NCBI GenBank assembly: GCA_965644295.1
Contig: CBFFRP010000430.1
Coordinates: forward strand, 1 to 64,000
DNA from: Paraphysomonas bandaiensis
Lineage: Eukaryota; Protista; Chrysophyceae
Reading direction: 5' to 3'
DNA length: 64,000 nt
The notes below the pieces were generated by a model. It searched no databases, had not been told where the DNA came from, and saw only the letters and a program-made list of their open reading frames with translations. Both the position numbers and the translations under genes were made by a program. Of this stretch, positions 7,363 to 64,000 are shown piece by piece (the first letter of the stretch is position 1; each line of letters opens with the position of its first letter).

Positions 7363-7760
7363 GTAGTGAACGTCTGTTTTTTAGCAATAGGCGTGTAAGA
7401 GTCAGAACTAATGTAGTAAAACAATTTAACTAACAAGTTCTTAACTCTGATATCCTACGAACGCTGCTTGTGCATCGCAAGCACCAAGGTGCAACCACTT
7501 CTTAAGGTGAACTAGCCCGAACGCTTGACTTCAGCAGGCAGCCAAATACTCCGGATGCCTTTGAGGTGGGCACATTCCGGGATGCCTGTTTATTTGTCAA
7601 GGCCCAAAATGTCCCTTGCACTACACAAGCATTTGACTATGAGTAGACAGAACATTATATGATGACTATATATGCAGCTCATGTTATTTTTCCAGAGAAA
7701 TATCTCCTGTACTTATCCCCAGAACATCACGAAAAGGCGCGACTCCGACTTTGTTGAGGG
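7363..7760 (-). mobile_element. Short non-autonomous retroposon (SINE/LINE-derived), family copy 1
   Basis: Exact 11-bp TSD attcgtggtaa (7352-7362 / 7761-7771). Homologous to ~41600-41922, 63835-64000 and ~40025-40145. A-run near the 3' end on the minus strand. Confidence 0.8.
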
Positions 7761-8714: not shown

Positions 8715-9026
8715 ATGTCTTTAACAGATGGATATAACTGGTTGTACAAAGCCACATGTAGTGTGCTTATAAATACAACTCCAACAGCTGTTGGGGCAGC
8801 TCTTGGTTCAGCGGCTGTGCTGGGAGGATTTGCTGCAGTTGGCCTTTCTCCGGTTGGTCCAATTGCAGGTGGATTTTTTGCAGCAAATATGGGTGCTGGT
8901 TTGACTTCAGGTGGTGTAATGGCTGTTGCTCAGTCACTGGCTATGACGGGAAAAGCCTATGCAGTTGGTGCCACCGTTGGGGCTGTAACTGGTGCAGCGA
9001 TAGGGTACCCAAAAGTGTCTGCCTAA
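8715..9026 (+). CDS. IFI27/ISG12-like small Gly/Ala-rich membrane protein
   Basis: GLSPVGPIAGGFFAANMGAGLTSGGVMAVAQSLAMTG resembles the ISG12 motif. First ATG at 8715. Confidence 0.65.
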   Translation: MSLTDGYNWLYKATCSVLINTTPTAVGAALGSAAVLGGFAAVGLSPVGPIAGGFFAANMGAGLTSGGVMAVAQSLAMTGKAYAVGATVGAVTGAAIGYPKVSA

Positions 9027-9390
9027 AGCAATTGAACACGATATAAATGTTTTTTAATGGGAGATAGACTCTGATGCAGGGCAGATTGTGGATACCTGCT
9101 CCCTTCCTTTATACTCTAGATAGTGGTAATTAATTTAAGTAATAAATGATTCTGGCATTAAGATGGTATATTTTAACTAAAATAGCGCTCCTATTGCCCC
9201 ATTCTGAGCGCGTACTTAGGTAGATTCGGATGGGGGTCGGGTGGGTACCTAACTAATACTTGATTTAAGTCCCATACGTTATTTGCTAGCTACCTACTGA
9301 ACCCAACTAGCTACATCATTATCACACGGTATTCAGCGCTGAATATGCAGTGAGAACCCAGAGTGGGGAACTGCTGAACTAAGCAATGTG

Positions 9391-12300
9391 TATTAGGTAT
9401 TAGGAGTCATTGATTCACGTATATCTCTTAACGCGTGAATACAACACACGTATACAATGAAATACCAAGTAGACTGAATAATTACCAAGCTATACATGAT
9501 ACGCGACTGTACAAGATACGCACATGTGTGGTGCTAACGCTCTGCTCAAACGTGTCTTGCTATTATACTATTAGGCCCTATCGTTCAATCTTTATCTCTA
9601 ATAATATCAAGTATATCCTTGCTAAATATCAAGACTAACCTTAAATCTTATTTTGGCAGCGGATGAGTTCTAAGACTAACAGTTACGATAACTCCGACTC
9701 CGACTCATCGGACAAGAGGAAGGATTCCATGCCACCCTTCGACGCCAAGAACTTCTCAAAATGGCAGAAGAAAAGTAGAGCCTGGTTTCTTTCGTAAGCC
9801 CAAAATAGTATACATCCTAAGAAACGATGCGCCAGAGGAGCCTATACGTCAAGAGGAAGAAACAGAAGAGGACTACCTATACAGGAAAAACGCCTACGAC
9901 GAAAATATGCAGTATTTCGAGGAGGGCAACAATTACCTATGGTCACTGCTATCTAGCGCGGTGATTGGCCAAAACGAGGAAGCAGAGGGTATTATCGAAA
10001 CAGTCCCTGAAGGAGATGGAAAAAGGGCATGGTCAGAGATCGAAAAGCATTTCAAAGACAAGACCTCAAATGATACAATAACCGACCTCATTGGCCAACT
10101 GCAATCAATCAAAATCAAGCAAGCTCAAACAATCAATCAATTCCTGGACTCGCTACACACGGCCACAAAGTCTCTGAACAATACCTCATTTCAAGAATAC
10201 GACAAGGGATGGTCTCAAATGAAAACCAGACCTATAAGGACCTGGCAATCAACCTCCAAATGAACCCAATTGATGATTATAAAACGCTGATAAGAAGATT
10301 GAGAGCATTCGAGCATTCCACTGTAGGCTCCCTACTATCACAAAATACGGAAACTAAACGGGATAGCGCAAACTACAGCTCAACAGGCAAACAGCCGTTT
10401 AACCCCCGTCTATCGAAAAAGCAAAAGCACAACGGGCAGCGAAATCCAACAAAACACAAGAAATTCAACAAGTCCAGCAGAGCTACAAGTGCAAAGTCGC
10501 GCGAAGTTAAGTGTTTCAGATGCAATGGATCCAACCACATTGCAGCAGAGTGCAAGCACTCGTGGGAACACATACAACAGATGCAGAAGTCCACAAACAA
10601 ACGAAAACGACAATAAAAGAGGGAAAGGGCATCACCCCAAGAACACATCATCAAAATACCCAAGAAACAGTCATCGGGATTCGAACTTAAGACTGGAAGA
10701 CTATGACGATGAGGGGCCAAACGATGACAATGACTACAGTTCATTCTCTGGGATGATCACAGACAATCACGTCCTACATACGGAACACGAGAAGCAGGAC
10801 TTCGGCATTTTAGACTCTGGCTGCACAATATCAATTACAGCAGCATGAAGCTTACTCTCCGAATTCACTTATGACCAAACCACCATCTACACCGCCAAAT
10901 CAGGATCAGAAATGCAGGCATTGGGATACGGCAAGCTTTGACTGATCAGAAAGTGCAAGTTAGTTCCAGATGCGTCAAAGACTTTAATTTCTATCAGCCA
11001 GTTGACAACAGACGCCGACTGCAACACAGTATTCGGACAAAACGAGGCACGCATCATATACCACGATGGAATTTTGTTAACCACAGCCAGGAAACAAAAC
11101 GGTCTATACGAGGTCAAATTATCCGATTTAGGTTACATCCAAGACCAATGCAACTTGGCATCAACATCAAGCGGTTCCTCAATTTCCCTGGCACATCGAA
11201 GGTTGACCCACGCATCCATTGGCTTAATTCAAAAAGCACTAAAGTTGAATCTTGTAAAAGGAATCACTATTTCAAAATCCGACCTGAGCTACCAGAAGGT
11301 CTTTGTGATGGCTGCGCACAAGGCAAGGCTCACAGGAGGAAACATAGGCGCGAGACAAGGCAAATGATACCGACAAAAACCAGAAGATCACAGGAGCTTC
11401 AATTGGAGGACTTATATAGCAGTTGATTTTACCGGACCATTTTCACCTCCAGCGATAGTCACAGGAAACACCGTAGTCTTCGGAGCTACCGATGCAGCTT
11501 CAAGATACAGTTGGACATTCTATGGAAAACACAGAACCGAGGATTTTGTCATTGAGTGCATTCAGAAAATTGTGGATTATCTGCATTCGAAAGGCAAACG
11601 GCTAGTACACTATCATGCTGATGGTGGTCGTGAGCTAGTATCACATCGTGTACTGAACTTGCTGAGAAAATTAGGATCAACCTGGACCTTCAACGCTCCA
11701 TACACGCCTGAAGACAACCCCATTCAAGAACGACCATGGCGCACGACCAAAGAAAGAACGCTTGCATCCATTTGCAACTCAGGCCTACCACCCAACTTCT
11801 GGGAACAGGCCATGTCCACCGTCACGCATATGAAAAATCGCCTGCCATGCGCCACTGCAAAGGGATTCATATCACCGTATCAGTTCATCCACGACGAGGC
11901 CCCCGATTTATCTTACGCCAGGATTTGGGGCTGCAAATGCCATACATTCATAGACAATAAGTCTCAGAGAAGAAACGATTGGTCTCCACACAGCCATATT
12001 GGGTACTTCATGGGATACCGAGAGGATGGACCAGGGTACGTCATATATGTACCCTAACTCAAGGACTTTGTTATCTCAAGTCACGTCTTTTTCAATGAGT
12101 GCATCCCCGACGTCAAAGAAAACTATTACGCTGAAATCGAATCATCACTGAGAGAAGAAAATTCAGAGAATCGAACAGCCGAGAGCTTCCAATACCTCGT
12201 TGGAATGACCCACACAGATCCACAGGATGGCCTCCAATACATCACGACAAGAATCACAGTCATCAAAGGCTACGTGGCTGCTTACAGAGGATTGGCCCCA

Positions 12301-14943
12301 CGAGAAAATGAAGGGCGGGTCATCGAGTTAAACGACCCAATACACGCTGCGGACATCGAAAAGTACACCGCCGAGCACTTTAGTTATCAGAACGCGGTAT
12401 CACCCTCGCAAGAGGAACCAGGATACCCCGTGGAAGGAACAGTTCCAGGGAGGAGCAGTTCAACAGATAGCCGTCATGACGCCACACGGGGCGGGAGTCA
12501 CAGCCATTTGAGAGGACCCTATACTCAAATGAAAAGGACGCCGCAAAGCAGAAGCTCAACGGAATACAGTGCCGAAGGAGGCACGGGGTGACAACAAGTG
12601 TGATCACCCTGCTCGTAAGGTCAAACGAGCTATCAAGACTGTGAATTCCCAGGGTGACAGGAACCGGCAAAGCCCGGATGGCACAATTACGGGTGTAAGG
12701 ACACCCCACCGTCACAAGGTGAGCCGTTGCGTAAAGAAAAGTCTCCACAGCAAGAGACAGACTAGAAAAAGGGTAATTATAAACGTACACAAATTCGGTG
12801 ACAATGTATACCACTGTAATGTTGATAAACGATATCTGTACAACCACAAAACACCTGATAAACATGAGAGTTACAGAACATTATACATGAATGATGTTGA
12901 CATCATTATGCATGCAAATGACATATATGTAGTAGCAATGATGTACCTAACACTCCCAACAATGTTGGTGAGGCACTATCAGGCAGGTACAAGGAACAAT
13001 GGCTAAAGGCCATCAACAAAGAAATCAAGTCTCTAGAGAGCAAAGGCTGTTGGAGGATAACGACACCACCAGCAAATTCCAACATCATAAGGGGAAAATT
13101 CGTATTTAGAGTAAAGGTCAAGCGAGATGAGGTTACCTTCAAGGCGAGGTTAGTGGCTCAAGGTTTCTCCCAGGTCGAGGGTAAAGACTACAACGAAACC
13201 TACAGCCCAGTCGCAAAGGCCACATCAATGAGAACAGTCATAGCACTAGCAACTATACTTGGGTTGGAGCTTCACCAGGTAGATTTCTCTACTGCTTACA
13301 TCAATGCAGACCTCCAAGAGGAAATCTACATGTATCCACCCGCTGGTCTCAATGTTCCAAACGGTAAAGTCCTCAGACTTCTAAAGAGCATATACGGACT
13401 CAAACACCAGATTAGTATCCGACCCGTGCATCTTCAAAAAATCCATCGATGGTCGACTCATAATTCTGGCAGTTTACGTCGATGACATCATTATCGCCGC
13501 TAAAAATAGGACTGACATCACCCGAATCAAGAATTCGTTAGCTGAAAAATTCGACATTCATGATCTCGGCCTCCTAGATTACTACCTCGGCATATTCGTC
13601 AAACAGGATATATAGAATCGAACTACGACACTAAATCAATCTCAATACATACGGAACCTACTCCACAGATTCAACATGGAAGATTGCAAGCCACGTAGTC
13701 ACCCCATGACAACAAATTTCCATATAGACATTCTCGAAAAGAAACAACTATCCCAAGAAAATCAAGAATTTGTCCAAAATTTTCCTTACAAGGAGCTGTA
13801 TATTGCTGTGTGCACTAGACCTGATATTGCATATGCTGTAAACACCCTTGCTCGTTTCAGTACTAACCCAAATCTAACTACATGCAAAGCCGCATTAAAC
13901 ATACTTAGGTACCTCAAAGGCGCCATCGATCAAGGTCTACAGTACTCCGGGAAGTCTGTTACCTTAACCGGATTCGCTGACAGTGATTGGGCACGCTGCA
14001 ACTTAACTCGCAGGTCGACCACAGCGTTTTGCTTCTTTATTGGAAATTGTCTCATTTCCTGGCGAAATCACGACTCCAGACCACTGTAGCTCTATCCTCT
14101 ACAGAAGCGGAGTACATGGCACTATCAACAGCATGTCAAGAAGCTATTTGGCTACGGTCACTACTCTCGGAATTGGGCTTCCACATGCCATACTCAACAA
14201 CCATATGGTGTGACAACAAAGGTGCAATTCAACTATGCCTAAACCCCGTACACCACCGACGAACAAAACATATTGCCATCAGATATCACTTCATAAGAGA
14301 ACAAGTCGCATCGCACTCTATTATTGTTGATTACATGCCTACAAACGAGATGCTGGCCGACATTCTAACTAAACCCCTCACATCAAACACGTTCCACAGA
14401 TTGCGGGATTCACTAATGGGGGGGGAGGTATTAACATACCTGCTATAGCAGTAAAAGAACAAAAGTATCTATCCCACCGGCAGAGAACTCAACCAAGAGA
14501 CCACGATGGATGACTTAGAGATCTACGGAGTTTTCCACGAGTATGCTGTATGTTGACATCAGTGTAATCCACAATCTGTGATTGCACTCGTGGGTTTTAC
14601 CCTCAGTAGAACTATCTCCAATAATATACATCTATATCCATATATATATCTATGTATACGTCATATGATTATTTCATTGAGGGGGAGTATTAGGAGTCAT
14701 TGATTCACGTATATCTCTTAACGCGTGAATACAACACACGTATACAATGAAATACCAAGTAGACTGAATAATTACCAAGCTATACATGATACGCGACTGT
14801 ACAAGATACGCACATGTGTGGTGCTAACGCTCTGCTCAAACGTGTCTTGCTATTATACTATTAGGCCCTATCGTTCAATCTTTATCTCTAATAATATCAA
14901 GTATATCCTTGCTAAATATCAAGACTAACCTTAAATCTTATTT
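9391..14943 (+). mobile_element. Ty1/Copia LTR retrotransposon, coding-defective, inserted in the 5' LTR of the outer element
   Basis: Identical 256-bp LTRs (9398-9653, 14688-14943), TSD atgtg (9386-9390, 14944-14948), PBS-like tggcagcgg (9654), PPT gagggggag (14679-14687). Domain order gag (CX2CX4HX4C), protease (ILDSGC), integrase (ADGGRE..ER), RT (YVDD), RNaseH (ADSDWA, ADILTK). Confidence 0.95.
9663..14448 (+). pseudogene. Copia gag-pol with in-frame stops, frameshifts and deletions
   Basis: Starts MSSKTN..FDAKNFSKWQKK at 9663. Stops near 9795, 10846, 10939 and 12055. Apparent deletions after YGLK and in FPYKE-LYI. Confidence 0.9.
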
Positions 14944-15955
14944 ATGTGTACATAGATAGAGGTGGGCGGCCGCAGCACTCAGCAGCACCCACTGGGGTGC
15001 CGCACGCAGTAATTAGTTACGCTGTCAATATGGGGCAGATAAAACAATGTATATGGTCACAGTCTATGTACAGTACATGTACAGTCTTTGTACAGCAGTA
15101 TGTGAAGTGAAGTGTTAATCATCATGATGTGTCTCTATGTACTTTAAGGTCACACGTCCATATGAACCTACACATAGCCATATATAGTCCATCATCATCA
15201 GCAGATACATACATACATTCGTATTCTGAGTCCTCCACATGACTGTATGTCTCACTGATCAATAGATACAGTAGTGACTAGTAGTTATGTCTGGTGTTGA
15301 CATGTAGCTATGGTTAACTATACACTGTACTGTACTGTACTCTACTATACACTATACTGTACTCTACTGTACACTATACTGTACTGTACACTGTACTCTT
15401 AAATGTTAACATGTCAAAAGCTGATAATCGCGATGTGTTTCTTGTGTATGTCGCCAAGCAAGCACTAGCTAGATCTACTTTATACTTGCGTGTCTCATAC
15501 ATGATTACGAGAAACCTCGCATATGCAGAGGTGGAGGGGAGCTGAGCCCGATGCTTGTTATACCTACACAGTACAGTCATGGACCATACGTACGAGAGTA
15601 CTCGCATATTATTAATCAAAGGAGGGGGGCACATGGTCTTGCAGATGAACTAAGTTTTAGTGTTATTGTCATTCATGGGTACGAGAATACCCGTCTATAT
15701 ATGAGCAGCCAACATGGTTACGAAGTAGGGAAGTCGACGTCTGTAATTTAATTTCTCTTTCACTTTGTCGTCGTGCTGGTTGATTAGTTTATCATTATAT
15801 AAACACATCCTACATAGATAAGAAAATAGTTCGGTGCACATACTACAATGTACTGAATGTCATAGGGTCCAAACTACGAAGCATAGTTGCAAGTTCATTG
15901 CAACAAACCTATTAATAACCAATTTCAAAAACATATACACACACAACATGAGTAC

Positions 15956-17788
15956 TCAATAGAATGGAGGGTCCTGTGAATAAAGCATCTTCAGAACATC
16001 CAAGACGAGTCTACCTTCAGTAGCCGCATCTTCGCAAGTTTCTTCGTCCCATGGAATTGGAGCGTCCATATCTGAACGAAGCCACTCCAGAACATCCATG
16101 TTTCTACCATCAGCAGCAGCATCTTCGCAAGTTTCTTCATCCGATGGACATGGAGAGAACTGTGAACGAAGCCACTCCAGAACATCCAGGTGGCCACCAT
16201 CATCAGCAGCATCTTCGCAAGTGGACTCCTCCCATGGACAGGGAGGGTCCTGTGAACGGAGCCACTTCAGAACATCCAAATATCCACCATCAGCAGCCGC
16301 TTTGCATGTTTCTTCATCCCATGGACATGGAGGGTCTTGTGAACGAAGCCACTTCAGGACATCCAAGTGTCCACCAGCAGCAGCAGCTGCGCAAGTGAGT
16401 TCATCCCATGGACATGGAGGGTCTTGTGAACGAAGCCACTTCAGGACATCCAACTGGCCACCACTAGCAGCAGCTTTGCAAGTGACATCACCCCATGGGC
16501 ATGGAGGGTCCTGTGAACGGAGCCACTTGAGAACATCGAAGTGTCCACCACGAGCAGCTTCACTGCAAGTGAGTTCACCCCATGGGCATGGAGGGTCCTG
16601 TGAACGAAGCCACTGCAGAACATCCAAGTGGCCATATCTTGCAGCTTCACTGCAAGTTAATTCATCCCATGGACATGGCGGGTCCTGTGAACGAAGCCAC
16701 TTAAGAACATCCATATACCCACCAGCAGCAGCCTCCATGCAAGTGTTCTCACCCCATGGACATGGAGGGTCCTGTGAACGAAGCCACTTAAGAACATCCA
16801 TATACCCACCAGCAGCAGCCTCCATGCAAGTGTTCTCACCCCATGGACATGGAGGGTCCTGTGAACGGAGCCACTTCAGGACATCCAACCTGTCAAAAGC
16901 AGCAGCCTCCATGCAAGTGTTCTCACCCCATGGACATGGAGGGTCCTGTGAACGAAGCCACTGCAGAACATCCAAATATCCAGCATCAGCAGCCGCATTG
17001 CAAGTGAGTTCATTCCACGGGCATGGAGGGTCCCGAGAACGGAGCCAATGCAGAACATCTAAGTAGCCAAAAGCAGCAGCCGTATTGCAAGTGGACTCAT
17101 CCCATGGGCATGGAGGGTCCTGTGAACGAAGCCATTGCAAAACATCCATATACCCACCAGCAGCAGCCTCAATGCAAGTTTCTTCATCCCATGGACATGG
17201 AGGGTCCTGTGAACGAAGCCACTTAAGAACATCCAAGTATCCACCACCAGCAGCTTCACTGCAAGTGAGTTCATCCCATGGACACGGAGGGTCCTGTGAA
17301 CGAAGCCACTTCAGAACATCTACGTGTCCACCAGCAGCGGCAGCAGTAGAAGTGTCGTCATCCCATGGACATGGAGGGTCATGTGAACGAAGCCACTTCA
17401 AAACATCCAAGTAGCCACCACTAGCAGCAGCTTTGCAAGTGAGTTCACCCCATGGACATGGAGGATCCTGCATATGTGGAGGTGTGTATATGAGGCTCAT
17501 GATGTATTTCATCTGCTGTAGTCTGCCGTATTGTGCACATGTATTCATTAGTTGGGTGTGTGGGCAGCCCATAGCCAGAGCCCATGAGACCATTGAGTTG
17601 GTCATACAGTAGTGAGATGCATGTGACTCAAGTCTCTCTCTGCTCTTATCAGTGTAGACTATATCGTGAAATCTCTTACAAGTCATGATCACTGGAAGGA
17701 CAGCCGTGTGTGGGATCATAGAGATGATGAGACGAACAACATCATCATTAAGAGCAGATATATGCGACATATATGAACACTGATTCAT
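15956..17788 (-). CDS. F-box-like plus ankyrin-repeat protein (CPWDE type, ~17 x 29-aa repeats)
   Basis: N-terminal LNDDVVRLIISMI..VIMTCKRFH is F-box-like. 87-bp tandem units encode PCPWDExTCxxAAxGGHLDVLKWLRSQDP. Intronless and intact. Confidence 0.9.
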   Translation of the reverse strand: MNQCSYMSHISALNDDVVRLIISMIPHTAVLPVIMTCKRFHDIVYTDKSRERLESHASHYCMTNSMVSWALAMGCPHTQLMNTCAQYGRLQQMKYIMSLIYTPPHMQDPPCPWGELTCKAAASGGYLDVLKWLRSHDPPCPWDDDTSTAAAAGGHVDVLKWLRSQDPPCPWDELTCSEAAGGGYLDVLKWLRSQDPPCPWDEETCIEAAAGGYMDVLQWLRSQDPPCPWDESTCNTAAAFGYLDVLHWLRSRDPPCPWNELTCNAAADAGYLDVLQWLRSQDPPCPWGENTCMEAAAFDRLDVLKWLRSQDPPCPWGENTCMEAAAGGYMDVLKWLRSQDPPCPWGENTCMEAAAGGYMDVLKWLRSQDPPCPWDELTCSEAARYGHLDVLQWLRSQDPPCPWGELTCSEAARGGHFDVLKWLRSQDPPCPWGDVTCKAAASGGQLDVLKWLRSQDPPCPWDELTCAAAAAGGHLDVLKWLRSQDPPCPWDEETCKAAADGGYLDVLKWLRSQDPPCPWEESTCEDAADDGGHLDVLEWLRSQFSPCPSDEETCEDAAADGRNMDVLEWLRSDMDAPIPWDEETCEDAATEGRLVLDVLKMLYSQDPPFY

Positions 17789-17881
17789 GGTTTATATGAC
17801 TAATAGAGTGGTAATCTACAAGACGAGTGCAGTACTGTAATAGTGCTCTCTCATTGTGTTACTCTATTGTGTATATGCATA

Positions 17882-18020
17882 CAGGGGGTGGTTGTGTGTA
17901 TCGATCATTGAAAAGTCATGGATTTTTCATTAAAAAGTCACTTTTTCTCACTTTTCAATGAAAAATCCATGACTTTTCAATGAAATAAACGATGACCAAA
18001 TCAATAAAAACCACCCCCAG
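17882..18020. mobile_element. MITE, Tc1/mariner-like, 139 bp
   Basis: TA|cagggggtggtt ... aaccacccccag|TA terminal inverted repeats (1 mismatch), plus a perfect internal 27-bp IR tcattgaaaagtcatggatttttcatt / aatgaaaaatccatgacttttcaatga. Confidence 0.75.
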
Positions 18021-18402
18021 TATAGTACTCGAAACACAGCATATTACAGAAAAACATGGCTTTTTTACCTGGTCGCATACAGAATTCCCGCTTCTACGAT
18101 TTTTTGTTTACACTGTATAGCACAGTGTACCGGTGTACGTAGTGTAGTGTACAGCAGTCTACATACTGTACATACAGTACTTCTTGGAAATCGTGTCTGA
18201 TTTTGGGGCTTTCAAAAAAAAATATGTAAAAAATGCGTTTTTACCCAAAAAAAATGCCCATAATAATATAATCATAAAAATCCCCCACTTCTAGACTTGC
18301 TTTGATGGAACACTACGTCGTACTGTATGACAGCACTGTGCTGTACTGTACTGTAGGAATTCCTACTGCTGTCTCGGTGTGTTAATACCACTCAGCATAT
18401 CT

Positions 18403-18481
18403 ACATACATACATACATACATACATACATACATACATACATACATACATACATACATACATACATACATACATACATACA

Positions 18482-18511
<30 letters not shown>
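18403..18511. repeat. (TACA)n microsatellite
   Basis: Direct observation. Confidence 0.98.
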
Positions 18512-18513
<2 letters not shown>

Positions 18514-18881
18514 CGTATATTGATTGACGCGAAGGACAATCATGGTGGTAAGATCAATTTGGGAAAAGCAATCAAAAAAGGAAAACAAGCAGCGGCACTT
18601 GCCAACAAAGCATCCAAAGCGGTGGTTGGCGAGTCACTCACAGATATGGCGGTCAATCGTCTTGAGGAAGAAGCGGTCAATCGCGATGTGAATGTAAAGG
18701 TAGCCAAGCGCGTCAGCAAAGTTGGTAAAAAAGCGGCCTCAAATTATGTCGGTGGTTCGGTCACAGGCGATGCGTATGTGTACTCATATCAAGGTTAATG
18801 GGACCAGCACATCCTGCAATGGATCCGTATAACTGAAGCAGTGGAAAAGGAAAACGCGGTGGTTCGATTTTACTATCCTAA
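18512..18881 (+). pseudogene. PLV/virophage-like basic core-protein precursor (pVII/pX-like), frameshifted and 5'-truncated
   Basis: GGKINLGKAIKKG...YVGGS, then after a frameshift RLMGPAHPAMDPYN*SSGKGKRGGSILLS*. Lys-rich with GG sites; directly upstream of an adenain protease. Confidence 0.5.
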
Positions 18882-18892
18882 TACATAAACGA

Positions 18893-19366
18893 ATGGAACT
18901 AGGAATTATAACATCCTCGCAGTTGACTTGATTGGGAAAACAAATGGGGTTTCGAATATATGTGGTTGGTAAACACCAATTAGTCAACCGAACTCCCATT
19001 CAAAATGAAATGATTATCGTCAACATCGATGACGGCTCCAAAGGTACACATTGGGTTGCCATATTTTCACGGGGTAAACGTTATTTATATTTCGACTCCT
19101 TTGCCCTCGCGCCACCAACAAATATCGCGGCGTATATTAAACGTGTGAATGGAAACAAAAAAATACCCTACAACAATTCTAAACTACCGGATCCTCGTGC
19201 AGAATCGTGTGGTTATTGGTGCGTGCTCTGGTTAGACTATATGAGAAAGCGATCCGTTCTGACAAAATGGTCACTTACCCGAATTCACAACATATTCACT
19301 TCACTATTCAAGAATGTGGAACAAAACGAAATCATATTGCACAAACTATACTCCGGCTTTTTATAG
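18893..19366 (+). pseudogene. Adenain-family (Polinton/PLV/virophage) cysteine maturation protease
   Basis: IVNIDDGSKGTHWVA, YFDSFALAPP and SCGYWC give the His-Asp-Cys triad. Probable start ATG 18893 is interrupted by in-frame TGA at 18929-18931. The oxyanion Gln position reads Pro. Confidence 0.85.
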
Positions 19367-19387
19367 TGCTCTACTAGTAAAAAGTAG

Positions 19388-19835
19388 ATGATTCACTATA
19401 AATCCACTACCCGAGCCACCACGCCCACTGCAACACTCACGCGACGACGGCAAGTCGCAGCCACCACTCATTCCCAATAAACGCGTCTTCGGGGTTCTTT
19501 TTGAAGGAACGGAACAGGAAATAAAACGAATTCGAGACGAGAAACATGCGTGCGAATTTGTTAAAGCAGTTCGTACCCATTTGCAAAACAAATACAGCGA
19601 CCGGATATTGCTGTGTACGATGCAATGTGTTGAAAATTTCATCTTGGGGAAATCACGGGGTTTATTCCGCGAACGACTTGTCATCGAATGTGTGTCTGAT
19701 TTTTTCGGCGGTGACGAAGATATCATTCGCAAAATGATCCAACTCCTCATGCCAAACATTAAAAACTACAAATGGTTCCGCCGTAACATGAAGAAAGCAA
19801 TCCGTTTTTTTGCAAACTTGCTTTTGACGAAGTAA
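19388..19835 (+). CDS. PLV-like hypothetical protein with damaged start
   Basis: Frame open 19392-19835; ATG at 19388 is out of frame by one base. LLCTMQCVENF...RERLVIE..FFG..DIIRKMIQLL resembles small conserved PLV ORFs. Viral-style tight packing. Confidence 0.5.
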
Positions 19836-19938
19836 CCTCACACCTCACAAGAAAATCGATTCAAATTGGATTAAATTGGATTTCGATATATCCTTCCACT
19901 CATACTCGCCGCCGTGTAATATATACTAGAAAGAAATA

Positions 19939-20738
19939 TTATTCAGTTGACGACTCAAGACTCCATGTATCACCTGTCAATCTAAAGTTGATCGTATTAA
20001 ACATAATATAACCGGCAGATGCGATTACAATCCGTATGATTGAATATCTCTTTGTTGTTGTCACCGGTTCAGTATATAAAGTTGAGTCTTGAGTTGCTGG
20101 AAATGCTACGTCATCTATATAACTCCATGTTGTTCCATCATCGGAACCAAGGATATAACAAGCTTTCATTGTTCTTTCCTGTTGTGTGCTTCTTTCCTGT
20201 GTTGATATAGATGTCAATCGCATCTTAAAAGGTAGTTGTATTTGCACCCATTCTCCATCTATGGAGTGTGATGTATCATACATTGTTGAGAAGTAATAAT
20301 CTGTTCCATTACTTCCTATATAATTGCCGGTTGTTCCATCATAAGCTTCACCAGATGGCATCGCATAAAAAACACCGTCTCTATAATTGTCTATACCATT
20401 CGGACCCGTGTTATTTCTGTTATTGCCCCAGAAAGTCTCATTACTATCATCAAATAATAAGTTACATAAATTTAAAGGATCTACCGTCCTGTACCTATAC
20501 CATATGAAGAGCATTTCAAATTGTAGTCTCCGTTTGCATATGCGGTTGGACCACTGCCCGCGGAATAAGTTTTCGTCATATGAGTGTCAAATACATCTTG
20601 ACCGTCAAAAACCGATCTCAAACCCGTGAAATCATTTGGGAATGTCACATCAGATTGATACATGGTGTTGGTGAGTGCGGGTGGGCTTTGGTGGGGGCGG
20701 GTTGTATAACTATTGATGAGTGAGAGAGAGCTCAACAT
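19939..20738 (-). pseudogene. Viral fibre/adhesin-like protein with a discoidin (F5/8 type C)-like domain, frameshifted
   Basis: Two overlapping ORFs (20481-20792, 19939-20514). GEWVQIQLP...ILGSDDGTTWSYID is a discoidin-like motif. Start approximate. Confidence 0.6.
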
Positions 20739-20779
20739 TTTTTTTGTTATTACATATGGGGTCAGAAAGAGCGATTCTG

Positions 20780-21117
20780 AAAAAACACACATAGATTTTA
20801 AATTAATTTGATTTTTTCAAAAATTTTTGTGTGTTTAAAAAAAAAAACTGGAACGGCAATCAATTTTGGAGGGTGCGGGCGTCAAAATAATTTTATATAT
20901 ATATATTCAATTCTGGCGCCCGAATAAAAAAGTTGGAGTTCAAATCCTCGATTCTGATTGGTGGAAAAAAACACACATAGATTTTAAATGAATTTGATTT
21001 TTTTTAAAGTTTTGTGTGTTTTTTGAAAAAAACTTGTACGGCAATCAATTTGGGAGGGATCGGGCGTCAAAATAAATTTATATATATATATTCAATTCCG
21101 GCGCCCGAATAAAAAAA
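20780..21117. repeat. Two diverged ~150-bp direct repeats (period ~185 bp) ending the viral block
   Basis: aaaaaacacacatagattttaaat...cggcaatcaattt..gggcgtcaaaataa..tatatatatatattcaatt..ggcgcccgaataaaaaa occurs twice. Confidence 0.9.
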
Positions 21118-21309
21118 TAAATATCTAATCTTGTCCCTAATTGTTGAAATGGACTAGTCAACCGTGCGGCCTGGTCCACGGCGACTTAGGGTAAGAAAAG
21201 GATGGTGGTCAAATGAGTTGTGTGGGACACTCTCCTTAGTCACAGTGACCGAGTTGATCACATATGGGAATACTGTACTACAGTTGTGTTTAGGAATACG
21301 GGTGGGGGG

Positions 21310-21594
21310 TGCCCCATTCTGAGCGCGTACTTAGGTAGATTCGGATGGGGGTCGGGTGAATACCTAACTAATACTTGATTTAAGTCCCATACGTTATTTT
21401 CTAGCTACCTACTGAATCCAACTAGCTACATCATTATCACACGGTATTCAGCGCTGAATATGCAGTGAGAACCCAGAGTGGGGAACTGCTGAACTAAGCA
21501 ATGTGTACATAGATAGAGGTGGGCGGCCGCAGCACTCAGCAGCACCCACTGGGGGGCCGCACGCAGTAATTAGTTACGCTGTCAATATGGGGCA
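21310..21594 (+). repeat. Intact 3' LTR of the outer element; shows the empty Copia target site
   Basis: Contains aagcaATGTGtacat once, whereas the 5' copy has ATGTG duplicated around the Copia. Confidence 0.9.
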
Positions 21595-22289
21595 CCTATG
21601 AGTGGATGATAGGGTGAATCAGGGCTAGGAAACAATATATTGAATTGCAATACATTGTACAATATATAGTAATATGTAATATATTGTAAAATATATTGAT
21701 TGTTCGACCGGCCAAAAATCCCATCAGGGTGTATTAGCTACAAACCTCACCTCAGTCGAATGAACATTTTCTACTCCCACTGTAATCCTGTCTATGACCT
21801 AGTTAGTGGGTACCGCAGAGCAGGGCTAGGGAAATATATTGCTCACAGGAGAACAACATTTTGGCCTGCGCAACATGCGATAGAAAAAGGAGCTTTGACA
21901 TCTGACATATGTTGCAGTCATAATGATAAAGTCTTAAACATTGAGAATTATATATATATATATGATAAATTATTTTTTATACTTTTGTCAAATTTGATTA
22001 TTTTTGTCAAATATTTTATGCTATCATAATATCATAGATAGTACACGGCAACCTATACTGCTTACTACAGAAGCCTGCTTTAACTTACAGACCACTACAT
22101 ATGACTTGCTGTTTATCACCTAACGTACCGAATTTAGAGACATAATTGTGATGAGACCGAGACTCACTCCACATAGCATAGACGAGATTTACCATCTGTC
22201 CAGAAGGCGGTCATCAGTCCCCAATATACTTATGATTCATGTGCTATCTACTGGAAATTGCGGCTAACTCCTAAAGTTTAACGCCTCGA

Positions 22290-24914
22290 TCAAGAGGCCT
22301 CTCTCTCACGAGGAAGTGGCGGAAGCTTTTCCTTGCTCCAGGTACCATCAGCAGCAGACCCATGAGGGGTTGTTTTTTTGTGGTAGTGCGGAGCATTGGA
22401 TCTATTGTTCTTCTCCGCCACATTCCGGGTATCTTTGTTGCGGTGAGAAGTGTTTGCACCAGAAGGAGCAGACTTGCTCTCAACTGGCTTATTCTCAGTG
22501 GGTTTCTCTCCAGCAGGAGCAGTGCGGGAAGAAGCTTCTTTCTCTTTTGCTGCAGCCTCTTCAGCCTCCTTTTGTTTGAGGACCTATATACAGTAAATAT
22601 TAGCAAACATATTCAGACGACAGTCTACACCAAATTACAACATATTCATACGCCTCAAGTGGATCAATTGGAGTAAATTGAATAATCACAGTATTCATAA
22701 CAAAAGCAGTCATCATTAGCGTTGTAAGGGCGGGCATATATTTTGTAATACTTACATTGGCGAAGGTAGGTCTTCCACCCCAGCTCGACGGGGTGGCAGT
22801 TTGACCTTCAGAATTTCCACCCTGGGTCTATAAAAATATTATACAGCGGGCAGAATAAACGAGGACAACACAATAACATATATGAACCTTCAGACAGTAC
22901 GAATACATTTGCTTGACACACAGAGAAAACTCATAGTCAGCATATTGGTGGATCATCAGCAGGTCTTTTTCAGGGCGGCGACACACTTCTCAATGACTCA
23001 CCTTGTTGGACCCATCTTGACGCCTTCTATCACGTCCCTGGCCTTTTTCCTTCTTTTCTGTCTTGCGAGAAGAGTTTGACCCCTCCTCGCGGCGACCACT
23101 CTCAGTGGATGGCTTCTTCTTTCCGCCTTCGGTACGCTTTTCTCCACCAGAGGACGGTGCAGCAGTAGTATTTGACGCAGTAGCAGAACCGCCAGCTTTA
23201 TCTGCATTCTTTTTCGCAGCTGGAGGCTTAAACGCATCAGGAGCTCCTCCATTTTTTAGGACACCTACCCATGAACCGCCCTCGGACTTCTTACCCCCTT
23301 GTTGTTGTCCTTGGCCTTGCTGATAGTCTTCACCGTATAGCAGCGACCCGTAGTCAACGGCACCTGCAAGAATCGCCTCTCTTTGTACGGGACGACCTTG
23401 CTGCATTTGTTCCCGAGTTTCGTCGATGGAAAAAGTGCGTTGGCGCAACAGGAGGTCCGTGTTTGGTGTAACTGACATTGCAGCCGGGTGGTCTTCCTGA
23501 TATAAGGTTCGAACAATGTTAGTGGTATAATATATGAATGTAAAAAACGCACCGGCCGAATAGTATCTGGTAATATTGCCTCCTTTATACTCGTAACTAT
23601 TTGAATAATATCATCCATGGAATATTTGGTATACGGTCCCTGAAACCCCCGAGCTGGGATTGTGGTGGGGCTGCTAGGTGCACTGCCCACTTCTTCGGTT
23701 CCCTGCGGTGGCAGAGGAGGAAAGTCAGCAGAGGAATTAATCTCAATAGCAGGAGTGGCCTGTTGTTGGGACCCTCCTGTGCCTTGTCCATCCCGTCTCT
23801 CTCTACCATGCCCCTTGCCATGTCCCCCCTTCCGGTTACCATCCCTATCCCTGCCTTTTCCTCCTGACGGCCCTCCATGGCTGTTTGACCTTCTGTCTCT
23901 GCGCGGAGAGCCTTCGCCATCGTTTCCATGGTTTTTATCATGGTAGCGCCCACCGCTGCGGGAATTTGGTGAGGACTTTTCACCATCACTATGCTGTCTA
24001 TTCTGTCTTCTGTTATCTCGACTTCCGTCAGGTCCCTGCTGACTTGCAGATCCCGGTCCATACCCGAACGGCCCACCACCTACTCCATCAGCCTGCATGT
24101 TCCCAGCCGCGTAAGGCGCGAAAGGCATACCAGGGTAAGCACCCATAGGGCCACCCATTGGTCCGGGAGTAGAGTAGTATGAACGTACCACAGCCTCGGA
24201 CTTGAGACGTGCTTTCACAGGAGCTCCATCGAAAGTGCGTTTCTTTAGCTTCAGATCCATGAGAGTATCTTTTGCATCCTCTTCAGATTCCATAGTAATA
24301 AACCTGTACACTAAATAAACCGAATATAACTATATCAAACGTTTAAATTTGCCGCACCATGTATCCCCAATCTCGCTCCTAACACTTGCGATGGGCTTGC
24401 ATCCAGGAAAAGAGAATATCTCTTTGACCTTCTCTTCGGGGGCATCGGAAGGAATTTCCCGCAATATAATTGTTGATCGCCCACTTTTTGCAAGCGTTTT
24501 GATTCTACCATCCGCGTAACTAACACTTGACGAATTCTGCAGGGCCTCAATAACTAAGTTCTCATCCTGAGTGAGGGCCCGAAGCTTCGCGAACTGCAAA
24601 AACATATATAACTGACACAGTCGTGTATACCTCATCGACTCTTACCGACATAACAGTAGCAAGTGGAACTGAGTTCTGAGAATCCATTTGAGATAAAAGG
24701 AATGTATCGCTTCTCAAGTTATCTTTGCTAAAGTAATATTCTATTTGATTGCGTACAGCTACGAGGAGTTGCTCTGGATCTATAAGTGTATGTATATATA
24801 TGTATGTATATATTAACAACCATATGAAACATATCGCATGATAAAACACATACCCATCTCTGTCTTTGCTTGAGGAGATGTTGTATTGGAGCTCGATGAA
24901 TGGTCAGTGGCCAT
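22290..24914 (-). CDS. La-related RNA-binding protein (LARP4-like), multi-exon
   Basis: La motif QIEYYFSKDNLRSDTFL followed by RRM-like IILREIP..WFITMESEEDA..VKARLK and low-complexity tail. Internal exon boundaries approximate. Confidence 0.85.
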
Positions 24915-30280: not shown

Positions 30281-30363
30281 ACATACATACATACATACAT
30301 ACATACATACATACATACATACATACATACATACATACATACATACATACATACATACATACA

Positions 30364-30397
<34 letters not shown>

Positions 30398-30767
30398 CAT
30401 ACATACATACATACATACATACATACATACATACATACATACATACATACATACATACATACATACATACATACATACATACATACATACATACATACAT
30501 ACATACATACATACATACATACATACATACATACATACATACATACATACATACATACATACATACATACATACATACATACATACATACATACATACAT
30601 ACATACATACATACATACATACATACATACATACATACATACATACATACATACATACATACATACATACATACATACATACATACATACATACATACAT
30701 ACATACATACATACATACATACATACATACATACATACATACATACATACATACATACATACATACA

Positions 30768-30796
<29 letters not shown>
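30281..30796. repeat. (TACA)n microsatellite, ~515 bp
   Basis: Direct observation; lies between divergent genes. Confidence 0.98.
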
Positions 30797-30798
<2 letters not shown>

Positions 30799-33365: not shown

Positions 33366-33412
33366 CTACAACCAAAACCACATACCCATAATTCAATCCT
33401 ACGATCTTAAAA

Positions 33413-34394
33413 CACACATACATACATACATACATACATACATACATACATACATACATACATACATACATACATACATACATACATACATACATACATA
33501 CATACATACATACATACATACATACATACATACATACATACATACATACATACATACATACATACATACATACATACATACATACATACATACATACATA
33601 CATACATACATACATACATACATACATACATACATACATACATACATACATACATACATACATACATACATACATACATACATACATACATACATACATA
33701 CATACATACATACATACATACATACATACATACATACATACATACATACATACATACATACATACATACATACATACATACATACATACATACATACATA
33801 CATACATACATACATACATACATACATACATACATACATACATACATACATACATACATACATACATACATACATACATACATACATACATACATACATA
33901 CATACATACATACATACATACATACATACATACATACATACATACATACATACATACATACATACATACATACATACATACATACATACATACATACATA
34001 CATACATACATACATACATACATACATACATACATACATACATACATACATACATACATACATACATACATACATACATACATACATACATACATACATA
34101 CATACATACATACATACATACATACATACATACATACATACATACATACATACATACATACATACATACATACATACATACATACATACATACATACATA
34201 CATACATACATACATACATACATACATACATACATACATACATACATACATACATACATACATACATACATACATACATACATGACATACATACATACAT
34301 ACATACATACATACATACATACATACATACATACATACATACATACATACATACATACATACATCCATACATCCATACATACATACATACATAC
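33413..34394. repeat. (TACA)n microsatellite, ~980 bp
   Basis: Direct observation; lies between divergent genes. Confidence 0.98.
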
Positions 34395-40708: not shown

Positions 40709-41922
40709 TATTGAATGTCAGATTATTAAGAAGCGCAAGCTTTGCGTTGCCGCGACCAACCTAACAACTCGCGCGACACTATGCATAACATGACTCTCAT
40801 CTAGTTACTATTGCATGCACCGACAAGTAGTGCTCAACTATACAACACGATTTAGTTAGCTACATGGGCATACGACGAGTTGCGTGTTTAAGCCGGATCA
40901 TACGCTCCTGCCCAATCTACTTGTCCTAACACAAACAACTTGCGGTCGGTGTCTTCGGCATATGTCTCCTGTATATGCGGCAGATCTTTAGGGCCCTCTT
41001 CAAGGTGGTGTTCACAGCAGCAGGTAGTCTGGAAGGGAGAATAAAGTAGCTCTATAGCGCCGGGTCCTCCCACGGTCACGAAGCGGTCTCACTGGTGCAA
41101 TTTTGCACACTGACGCATGAAACAGACATCTACCAAAATCTGTTACAAATTCAAGCTGACTCCAATGTCTTCCCTCCATTGTGTGCACTCGTCCAGCACA
41201 TGCATCCACCTTGCACTCTTCTCCCGAGTGAGTTACACTAGTAGGAAACCGTGCACCTTCCCCGCTCGGATGAAAACCTACTAAGCAAGAATAACATAAA
41301 AGCACCACAAATGTACCTGACACTGCTTGGAGAACAGTGCCAGAGCCTTGATATAATCTCAATGACCTGGGTCAGGAGAAACCAAGACTAGGCAGTAGAC
41401 GTGTGAGAAGACATGACAGGTCTAATCACATCATTGCCATTGCCATGCATCCATGAGGAAAGTTTGACGCATTACCTCGGTCATTGGCCACACAGATACC
41501 AAATAATGTGAACTCATACTCAGCATCAATCACTCAAAGCAAACGCAGGGAGCAAGCAGAATGTTGATATACCTGACATCTGCTGACTTCAGGTTTTTTG
41601 AGTTCTTAAGGTGAACATCCCGGATGCTTAACTTCAGCAGGCAGCCCAATACCCCGGTTACCCTTCTGGTGGGCCCTGTCCCGGATGCCCTTGAGGTGGG
41701 CCCATTCCCGGATGCCTGTTTATTCGTCAGGGCCCAAAGACGTCTACACAAGTGACACTTTATAGAGTCCCTTGTACCGCACAAGCATTTGGCTATGAGT
41801 GGGCAGAACAATATATCTGCTGACTATATAATATGCGGCTCACGTTAGTTTCCCGGAGAAATATCTCCGGTACTTATCCCCCAGAACACCACGAAAAGGT
41901 GCGAATCCGACTTTGTTGAGGG
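40709..41922 (-). mobile_element. 1.2-kb retroposon, family copy 2, inserted in the Gypsy RNase H
   Basis: 14-bp TSD gagcaagag(g/a)ccta at 40695-40708 and 41923-41936. Same terminus (ctttgttgaggg) as copies 1 and 3. Confidence 0.8.
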
Positions 41923-61584: not shown

Positions 61585-62438
61585 TGTATGTATGTATGTA
61601 TGTATGTATGTATGTATGTATGTATGTATGTATGTATGTATGTATGTATGTATGTATGTATGTATGTATGTATGTATGTATGTATGTATGTATGTATGTA
61701 TGTATGTATGTATGTATGTATGTATGTATGTATGTATGTATGTATGTATGTATGTATGTATGTATGTATGTATGTATGTATGTATGTATGTATGTATGTA
61801 TGTATGTATGTATGTATGTATGTATGTATGTATGTATGTATGTATGTATGTATGTATGTATGTATGTATGTATGTATGTATGTATGTATGTATGTATGTA
61901 TGTATGTATGTATGTATGTATGTATGTATGTATGTATGTATGTATGTATGTATGTATGTATGTATGTATGTATGTATGTATGTATGTATGTATGTATGTA
62001 TGTATGTATGTATGTATGTATGTATGTATGTATGTATGTATGTATGTATGTATGTATGTATGTATGTATGTATGTATGTATGTATGTATGTATGTATGTA
62101 TGTATGTATGTATGTATGTATGTATGTATGTATGTATGTATGTATGTATGTATGTATGTATGTATGTGTGTATGTATGTATGTATGTATGTATGTATGTA
62201 TGTATGTATGTATGTATGTATGTATGTATGTATGTATGTATGTATGTATGTATGTATGTATGTATGTATGTATGTATGTATGTATGTATGTATGTATGTA
62301 TGTATGTATGTATGTATGTATGTATGTATGTATGTATGTATGTATGTATGTATGTATGTATGTATGTATGTATGTATGTATGTATGTATGTATGTATGTA
62401 TGTATGTATGTATGTATGTATGTATGTATGTATGTATG
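61585..62438. repeat. (TGTA)n microsatellite, ~850 bp
   Basis: Direct observation; lies between divergent genes. Confidence 0.98.
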
Positions 62439-62556
62439 CTATGGGTACATGCACCGTATTTCATGCACCACATACATAACATACATACATGTCTGTTCAT
62501 GTATGTGTATATATCTCGAGGTGTTATTATCACTCATCTCTCAGATAATAGTTACA

Positions 62557-63834: not shown

Positions 63835-64000
63835 CCCTCAACAAAGTTAGACTCGCACCTTTTCGTGGTGTTCTAGGGGGTAAGTACCTAAGATATTTCT
63901 CCGGGAAACTAACAACGTGAGCCGCATATATAGTCAGCAGTCAGCAAATAACCTTCTGCCCACTCATAACCTAGTACTTGTGTGGTACAAGAAGGGACAT
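63835..64000 (+). mobile_element. Retroposon family copy 3 (5' end; runs out of the window)
   Basis: ccctcaacaaag..gcaccttttcgtggtgttct.. is the reverse complement of the termini at 7760 and 41922. Confidence 0.8.

Follow-up and report, generated by a model that had tools for sequence, protein, structure and literature searches.

Can a long terminal repeat (LTR) retroelement take up genes of a DNA virus and multiply them in a protist genome? The question is raised by a stretch of 64,000 nucleotides of the chrysophyte Paraphysomonas bandaiensis (assembly GCA_965644295.1, contig CBFFRP010000430.1, positions 1 to 64,000, forward strand; hereafter the window), in which two 285-bp direct repeats at 9195–21594 bound an ankyrin gene and four broken reading frames of viral appearance. 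The first-pass annotation of this DNA had proposed a non-autonomous LTR element spreading virus structural genes and an F-box/ankyrin gene together. Our analysis leads to a different reading, to which we assign a probability of about 0.6. The locus would be a broken copy of a multi-copy LTR family whose 3′ interior contains a fragment of a Polinton-like virus (PLV), namely a protease gene and its neighbours, and this family is likely to have been retrotransposed via helper enzymes. The particular copy in the window is probably a dead and immobile chimera, and its ankyrin gene is probably a one-off passenger, picked up only once.

The LTR pair is confirmed to be real and to result from one insertion of the LTR-retroelement type. 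It consists of the following parts, with coordinates given here and below as positions in the window and LTR positions numbered 1–285.

9190–9194 (+): left target-site duplication CCTAT, on the outer flank of the 5′ LTR.
9195–9390 (+): 5′ LTR, positions 1–196, starting with TGCCCCAT; 98% identical to the 3′ LTR.
14949–15037 (+): 5′ LTR, positions 197–285, ending with ATGGGGCA.
21117–21309 (+): spacer and polypurine-tract-like run, the run being GGAATACGGGTGGGGGG at 21293–21309; multi-copy at module level.
21310–21594 (+): 3′ LTR, belonging to a very high-copy repeat.
21595–21599 (+): right target-site duplication CCTAT, on the outer flank of the 3′ LTR.

Once the Copia retrotransposon nested in the left repeat and one copy of the ATGTG duplicated at its insertion site are removed, both LTRs are 285 bp long and differ at five positions (50, 51, 91, 108 and 246), and their termini form a perfect 8-bp inverted repeat of the TG...CA type. 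The CCTAT pentamer is present on the outer flanks only, the inner ones being GATAA and GGGGG, and a chance match of the two 5-mer flanks has a probability of 0.0011 at the local base composition. The run abutting the 3′ LTR has purines at 14 of its 17 positions. The interior (15038–21309) measures 6272 bp, and no gag/pol family match was obtained among its seven main frames in this copy. A tRNA primer-binding site was not found after the 5′ LTR of this copy, where the first TGG lies 16 nt away (15054) and the longest self-priming match is 5 nt. The first-pass annotation was thus accurate about the architecture: two repeats of this length with about five differences, the pentamer on the outer flanks, the G-rich tract, a single insertion interrupted by Copia, an interior of about 6.27 kb lacking gag and pol, and within it a miniature inverted-repeat transposable element (MITE) and a microsatellite. 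Its term non-autonomous is established for the copy under study alone; LARDs are one class of non-autonomous LTR retroelements.

Contigs of public data sets were placed on the window from four of the 24 listed runs over 18512–22400 and from four over 14700–18401, six different runs in all, while X17–X20 (small shares) and 14 others were left out; the depth ratios below take a single-copy flank contig of the respective run as reference. The LTR has a depth far above that of the viral part of the interior and stops at 21594 against many flanks (12 contigs of run X1 and three of X9 with loose ends, agreement 0.46–0.54). Both LTRs in the window have C at position 218, where T makes up 97–100% of the contig depth in four runs, and the presence in both of this rare allele, which lies next to the unique DNA, fits a single reverse-transcription event.

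The viral part of the interior, which we call the virus block, comprises four open reading frames (ORFs) or genes and a repeat.

18516–18798 (+): ORF A, a 3′ end of 93 codons without a start, its frame open up to the junction; assigned by synteny.
18893–19366 (+): adenain-type cysteine protease (clan CE, Peptidase_C5-like), a pseudogene in this copy.
19388–19835 (+): ORF C, an orphan, with its start out of frame and six codons missing here.
19939–20738 (−): gene D, with an F5/8 type C (discoidin) domain; its frame is disrupted by a shift near 20495.
20780–21116 (no strand): A+T-rich (29% G+C) 185-bp tandem repeat of 1.8 copies; possibly the donor virus end or the gene D promoter.

All four coding units are broken in the window copy, and intact relatives of three of them exist elsewhere. 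Homology and modelling together indicate that 18893–19366 encodes an adenain-type protease. The window copy has a stop at codon 13 and a replacement of Gln99, one of four residues (H53, Q99, C106 and G107) that do not vary when 79 of the 150 listed relatives are aligned. The intact relative P0001 is 157 aa long and 94% identical, and four of the five members of the protease cluster are full-length. P0001 has 2299 relatives at E ≤ 0.001, mostly Preplasmiviricota are found among the Atlas neighbours of the protease, the best solved match of its profile is the adenovirus proteinase (E 7.8e-10), and the same fold ranks first for the predicted structure (pLDDT 94). ORF C has an intact relative of 156 aa from a transcriptome (P0002) and no match in Pfam, PHROG or the Atlas; its single-sequence structure model reaches pLDDT 50. 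Gene D has intact relatives of 265 aa in a cluster of 30 members, a protein 96–98% identical to it carries the genus label Paraphysomonas, and an F5/8 type C domain is also present in a fibre-like protein of the protease-bearing viral contig L055. Two further transcriptome-derived proteins (P0159 and P0160) represent, with P0002, gene D and ORF C. No close relative of P0001, P0002 or P0158 was found in viral contigs. The discoidin paralogs of the P0158 type (matching 19942–20071 and 20332–20461) form a family of 30 cluster members on contigs of up to 6.6 kb and are far more abundant than the virus block itself.

ORF A is likely the remnant of a gene for a core protein, which in related viruses stands ahead of the protease gene. 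A pattern built from an alignment of four protease sequences identified 21 viral-contig loci, of which 16 were examined, the weak matches L063–L067 being left out; a basic core-like gene lies directly upstream of the protease on the same strand in 11 of these 16, many of which are near-identical viruses. ORF A is itself the start-less end of a basic protein. Its best pairwise score against the core proteins was reached by 6 of 500 shuffles and its profile score by 14 of 500. It gave no match in the PDB, and its pattern none in metagenomes. The motif HGGKINLGKAIK of ORF A can be set beside HGGKIHWGKIAK of one core protein, a pair spotted post hoc and not counted as a test. ORF A may also resemble adenovirus protein VI, an idea that PMC8502044 did not help to judge. 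The protease relatives in viral contigs lie near A32 ATPase and integrase genes. The loci L047–L062 share a putative capsid protein of 560–590 aa, without Pfam or PDB sequence match where tested, whose gene adjoins the core-like, protease and A32 ATPase genes; L048 also has integrase and PIF1 helicase genes.

Genes that would make the block a virus in its own right were sought with profiles against the 1166 six-frame segments of the window, in which the control protease profile finds the protease with E 6e-23. Profiles of the major (15 viral-contig proteins) and minor (14) capsid proteins gave no window match better than E 0.74, with the reservation that capsid in these contigs was assigned by size and position and that the major protein has no Pfam or PDB match. 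The A32 ATPase profile (five proteins) found nothing in the six frames of the window, long inverted ends were not detected around the virus block, and no integrase or replication gene family was recognized among the interior ORFs; a single-sequence integrase profile does not count, being too weak to find even the integrase of the Copia element. As the capsid and ATPase profiles are empty, the block appears to be a fragment of a morphogenesis region rather than a capsid gene set, and, judged from its gene content, it is not itself a Polinton-like virus. The donor probably resembled the Gosseviruses or a Maverick-type virus, though it may also have been a virophage.

The evidence that the block belongs to a multi-copy LTR family comes from the contigs. 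Fifteen of the virus-block contigs listed for four DNA runs have 2.6–10.9 times the flank depth, with at least nine block contigs per data set. Deletion copies keep the order of the block (19311>20454, 19552>20581 and 20780>21215), and other deletion joints lead into the purine tract (20474>21307) and into the LTR (20884>21457), the former carrying a variant of the tract that is richer in purines. By our reading of the contig tables, record 14 of X5 holds 208 nt of the gene D 5′ region together with about 120 nt of LTR. Several copies have the frameshift of gene D, which is what passive amplification would produce: at 20455–20585, a contig of X1 that matches exactly has 2.6 times the flank depth. 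In the protease, neither the stop nor the replacement of Gln99 appears anywhere in the contig depth of four runs. Silent differences make up 15 of the 29 coding ones, with 9.5 expected (p 0.024), among 40 listed of 223 variants. A contig of X8 at three times flank depth matches the window from 18516 and continues leftward into 272 nt of other sequence, which implies a different sequence to the left of ORF A in typical copies. Depth and deletion joints point to a shared interior, without gag-pol and joined to the LTR, for 18516–21309 and not for 15038–18515. No cluster of loose ends at 21116 was present among the 24 entries listed of 376. A pattern of the LTR end gave no match in viral contigs, 45 in prokaryote genomes, none with more than 29 aligned nt and hence attributable to chance, and one of only 19 nt in metagenomes.

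The left interior is of another kind.

15038–18515 (no strand): host-like single-copy segment in place of the usual 5′ interior, with eight listed exact contigs at 0.7–1.1 times flank depth in X1 and X5.
15956–17788 (−): intact ankyrin gene of 610 aa, with a weak F-box-like N-terminus and 17 ankyrin repeats.
About 17884–18018 (no strand): MITE-like element with inverted ends, high-copy elsewhere.
18402–18511 (+): (TACA)27 microsatellite, at the junction of unique DNA and family module.

No more than about 3 nt separate the LTR end from unique DNA (contigs begin at 15010). The single-copy state of the left interior and the missing primer-binding site make the composite probably a dead end. The repeats of the ankyrin protein (17 × 29 aa) are of the 'PCPW' type, and relatives 37–48% identical to it occur at seven viral loci, some of giant-virus size. 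Its N-terminus scores 14.4 and 17.3 bits for the F-box, below the Pfam cut-off of 20.5, and the F-box-like cut-off was passed by one of three viral relatives tested. The ankyrin repeats and the MITE are each high-copy elsewhere, independently of the LTR element. In X11 the non-coding parts of the left interior are covered at depth 4–9, a cover that may be DNA carry-over and so gives no evidence of an LTR-to-LTR transcript; in X14 the left interior is almost uncovered. Runs X1, X5 and X11 show very strong amplification of the 'PCPW' ankyrin family as such; one close paralog, whose 3′ flank is also similar (15442–16258, about 94% alike), reaches depth 159 in X11, and relatives are present in the giant-virus-sized contigs L072–L074 (1.9–2.5 Mb).

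Of the first-pass proposal, the idea that virus genes travel in an LTR family is upheld in so far as the block is multi-copy and distinct copies are joined to the purine tract and to the LTR, but the cargo of structural genes has to be given up, and of the four virus-like ORFs announced, all of them broken, the protease alone has firm viral homology. The F-box/ankyrin gene is indeed intact, its F-box being below threshold, and the notion that it spreads with the element is contradicted by the depth of the left interior and by the missing primer-binding site.

A history in four steps probably accounts for the locus. A protease-bearing virus of the Gossevirus or Maverick type would have integrated in an LTR retrotransposon upstream of the polypurine tract, and deletions would have left the block of core gene, protease, ORF C and discoidin gene. 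The block, whose multi-copy state is observed, would then have been amplified by retrotransposition as a passenger between LTRs, also after its decay had begun. In the third step, a transcript from an upstream LTR would have run through 3.5 kb of host DNA, which is observed to be single-copy and includes the ankyrin gene, into a 5′-truncated copy of the family, and the read-through product would have been reverse-transcribed and inserted at the CCTAT site. Read-through followed by reverse transcription would explain why the target is duplicated, why both LTRs have the rare allele, why the join falls exactly where the LTR ends and why a primer site is lacking. Lastly, as the sequence of the left LTR shows, a young Copia element inserted there.

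Several points weigh against the reading as a passively amplified LTR family. The depth of a contig does not equal a number of copies, and the ratios given are rough. The four runs match the window flank almost exactly and may represent one strain, and X1 may be the source. The best amplified contig joining interior and LTR (X5 record 15, 4.2 times flank depth) has only 24 nt of LTR, the bridging rule being 31 nt, and loose ends are known only from the 24 entries mentioned above. Among the contigs there was none across a second full element and no second LTR pair with a target duplication of its own, and the helper gag-pol was not found in the LTR-end scans of viral contigs, prokaryote genomes and metagenomes. 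Read-through predicts a donor locus, and none was seen in X1 at ≥88% identity over 15072–15319, so that the donor must have been lost. The sequence link of ORF A to core proteins is weak, the relatives of ORF C are confined to its own cluster, and gene D has no sequence match among the 397 viral ORFs tested. The excess of silent changes and the intact transcribed relatives suggest, moreover, that some copies are not mere passengers.

This last point leads to the idea that the block is functional, typical copies keeping gag-pol and/or a capsid gene left of ORF A and using the viral genes like a captured env or ORF3. We regard this as unlikely. It draws on the intact protease and ORF C relatives, the proteins from transcriptomes, the absence of the stop and the Gln99 change from the contigs, the silent excess, the foreign sequence in the X8 contig and the putative capsid gene just upstream of core gene and protease in L048 and L060; on the other hand, there are many deletion derivatives and a multi-copy frameshift, the intact genes may be young or come from free-standing viruses, and the transcriptome contigs may stem from DNA carry-over. 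The boldest version is a retroelement–virus hybrid whose typical copies spread through RNA and keep an intact, selected block of capsid, core, adenain protease and lectin-like fibre part. This version appears improbable; if true, it would mean that a retroelement disseminates, and perhaps expresses, genes of a virus particle. It is also quite unlikely that an ordinary family of integrated PLVs received an LTR insertion, so that the LTR rides in the virus and the locus is a recombination product. A chrysophyte genome holds 33–104 capsid genes, and PLVs commonly have retrotransposons nested in them (PMC10120064, PMC12220804); the one well-amplified junction contig, with just 24 nt of LTR, would also suit such an origin. 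It is opposed by the purine tract placed exactly at the LTR edge with its purine-richer variant in another copy, by the host DNA that follows the LTR here after the matching target duplication, and by the rare allele common to both LTRs.

The third step of the preferred history, taken by itself, has a competitor that we consider possible, though doubtful: the left segment may have entered after insertion, through DNA repair or ectopic recombination with the flank of another LTR. The missing primer-binding site and donor copy and the microsatellite at the right junction agree with late entry, and reciprocal exchange would keep the segment single-copy; yet the rare allele at position 218 restricts a crossover to the last 67 nt of the LTR or to a rare sister LTR, and a random deletion seldom ends exactly at the last base of an LTR. 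Misassembly, with unrelated loci joined at the LTR, the Copia element or the microsatellite, is very improbable. No listed contig extends across 14943–15010 or across the microsatellite, but both target duplications close correctly, contigs of X1, X5 and X11 that begin at 15010 run from the LTR end into unique DNA with no mismatch, and an exact X1 contig covers 18738–18897 at flank depth. Joint spreading of viral structural genes and the F-box/ankyrin gene by a non-autonomous element, suggested by the position of all parts between one LTR pair and by the strong amplification of the ankyrin family, is hardly credible: the left interior is single-copy right from the end of the LTR, neither a capsid nor an ATPase gene was found in the window and a primer-binding site is missing, so that it is largely refuted. 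A composite transposon of two MITEs was set aside because there is a purine tract and both LTRs have the rare allele.

As a passively amplified LTR family with a viral fragment, the element can be compared with several known systems. With the gene-capturing non-autonomous LTR retroelements produced by LTR-mediated retroposition (Tan et al. 2016, PMC5131818), it shares the LTR pair, the target duplication, the purine tract, a cargo alien to retroelements and cargo defects common to several copies; it differs in that the shared cargo is morphogenesis DNA of a DNA virus instead of host mRNA, and in that the left segment is unspliced host DNA abutting the LTR without a primer-binding region. The bdelloid LTR retrotransposons of the ORF3 type (PMC5408684) and those with a captured env likewise have foreign, partly viral genes in the 3′ interior throughout a family, whereas the ORF3 types described for bdelloids include no adenain protease, core-like or discoidin gene, and gag-pol was not seen here. 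The Gosseviruses, the one large PLV group with an adenain-type protease and chrysophyte hosts including Paraphysomonas (PMC7805220, bioRxiv 10.64898/2026.06.19.733378), and the Maverick-Polintons (PMC10120064) have the same type of protease, a basic upstream gene and a chrysophyte host in common with our locus, which differs by lacking capsid, ATPase, replication and integrase genes and inverted terminal repeats and by being bounded by LTRs. Nested insertions of small DNA viruses and retrotransposons are known in flagellates, from EMALE and Ngaro elements in Cafeteria (PMC8547959) and from cryptophyte PLVs (PMC12220804). There the retrotransposon usually sits in the virus, although a virophage inside a Ngaro retrotransposon has been reported (PMC8547959), while at the present locus an LTR element contains a virus fragment that was apparently amplified along with it. 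An LTR family carrying a viral protease block was not found in the literature searched, taken without supplements or subscription papers. If confirmed, such a family would provide a route for the amplification and transcription of DNA-virus genes in protist genomes without a virus, it would matter wherever marker genes or transcriptomes are used to count endogenous viruses, and it may represent a first step of gene exchange between retroelements and Polinton-like viruses.

The element inserted in the left LTR deserves a brief description.

9391–14943 (+): nested Copia retrotransposon with gag, zinc knuckle, integrase before RVT_2, LTRs and the ATGTG duplication.

Its LTRs (about 9398–9653 and 14688–14943) are identical over about 256–257 nt and end in TATT...ATTT, not TG...CA, with an extra TATTAGG on the left. 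They are very high-copy, and nine contigs show them ending at 14943 against many flanks. The gag-pol is disrupted by about six stops and frameshifts. Identical LTRs combined with a broken gag-pol suggest that a defective copy was recently mobilised in trans, unless the assembly contains errors here. This Copia was rejected as the helper of the outer element, to whose LTR its own is unrelated.

Some neighbouring features may be recorded. A small A+T-rich high-copy repeat at 21620–21726, 25 nt right of the element and with loose ends at both borders, is probably a MITE. Just left of the insertion, an ORF at 8715–9026 (+) encodes a Gly/Ala-rich hydrophobic protein of 103 aa, for which Pfam offers only a weak glycine-zipper match and which presumably resembles the IFI6/IFI27 (ISG12) family. 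Another dispersed repeat is present in three diverged copies, two direct and one inverted (7516–7760, 41619–41922 and 63835–63991), and near-perfect (TACA)n tracts of 0.5–1 kb occur at 30281–30797, 33412–34394 and 61585–62443.

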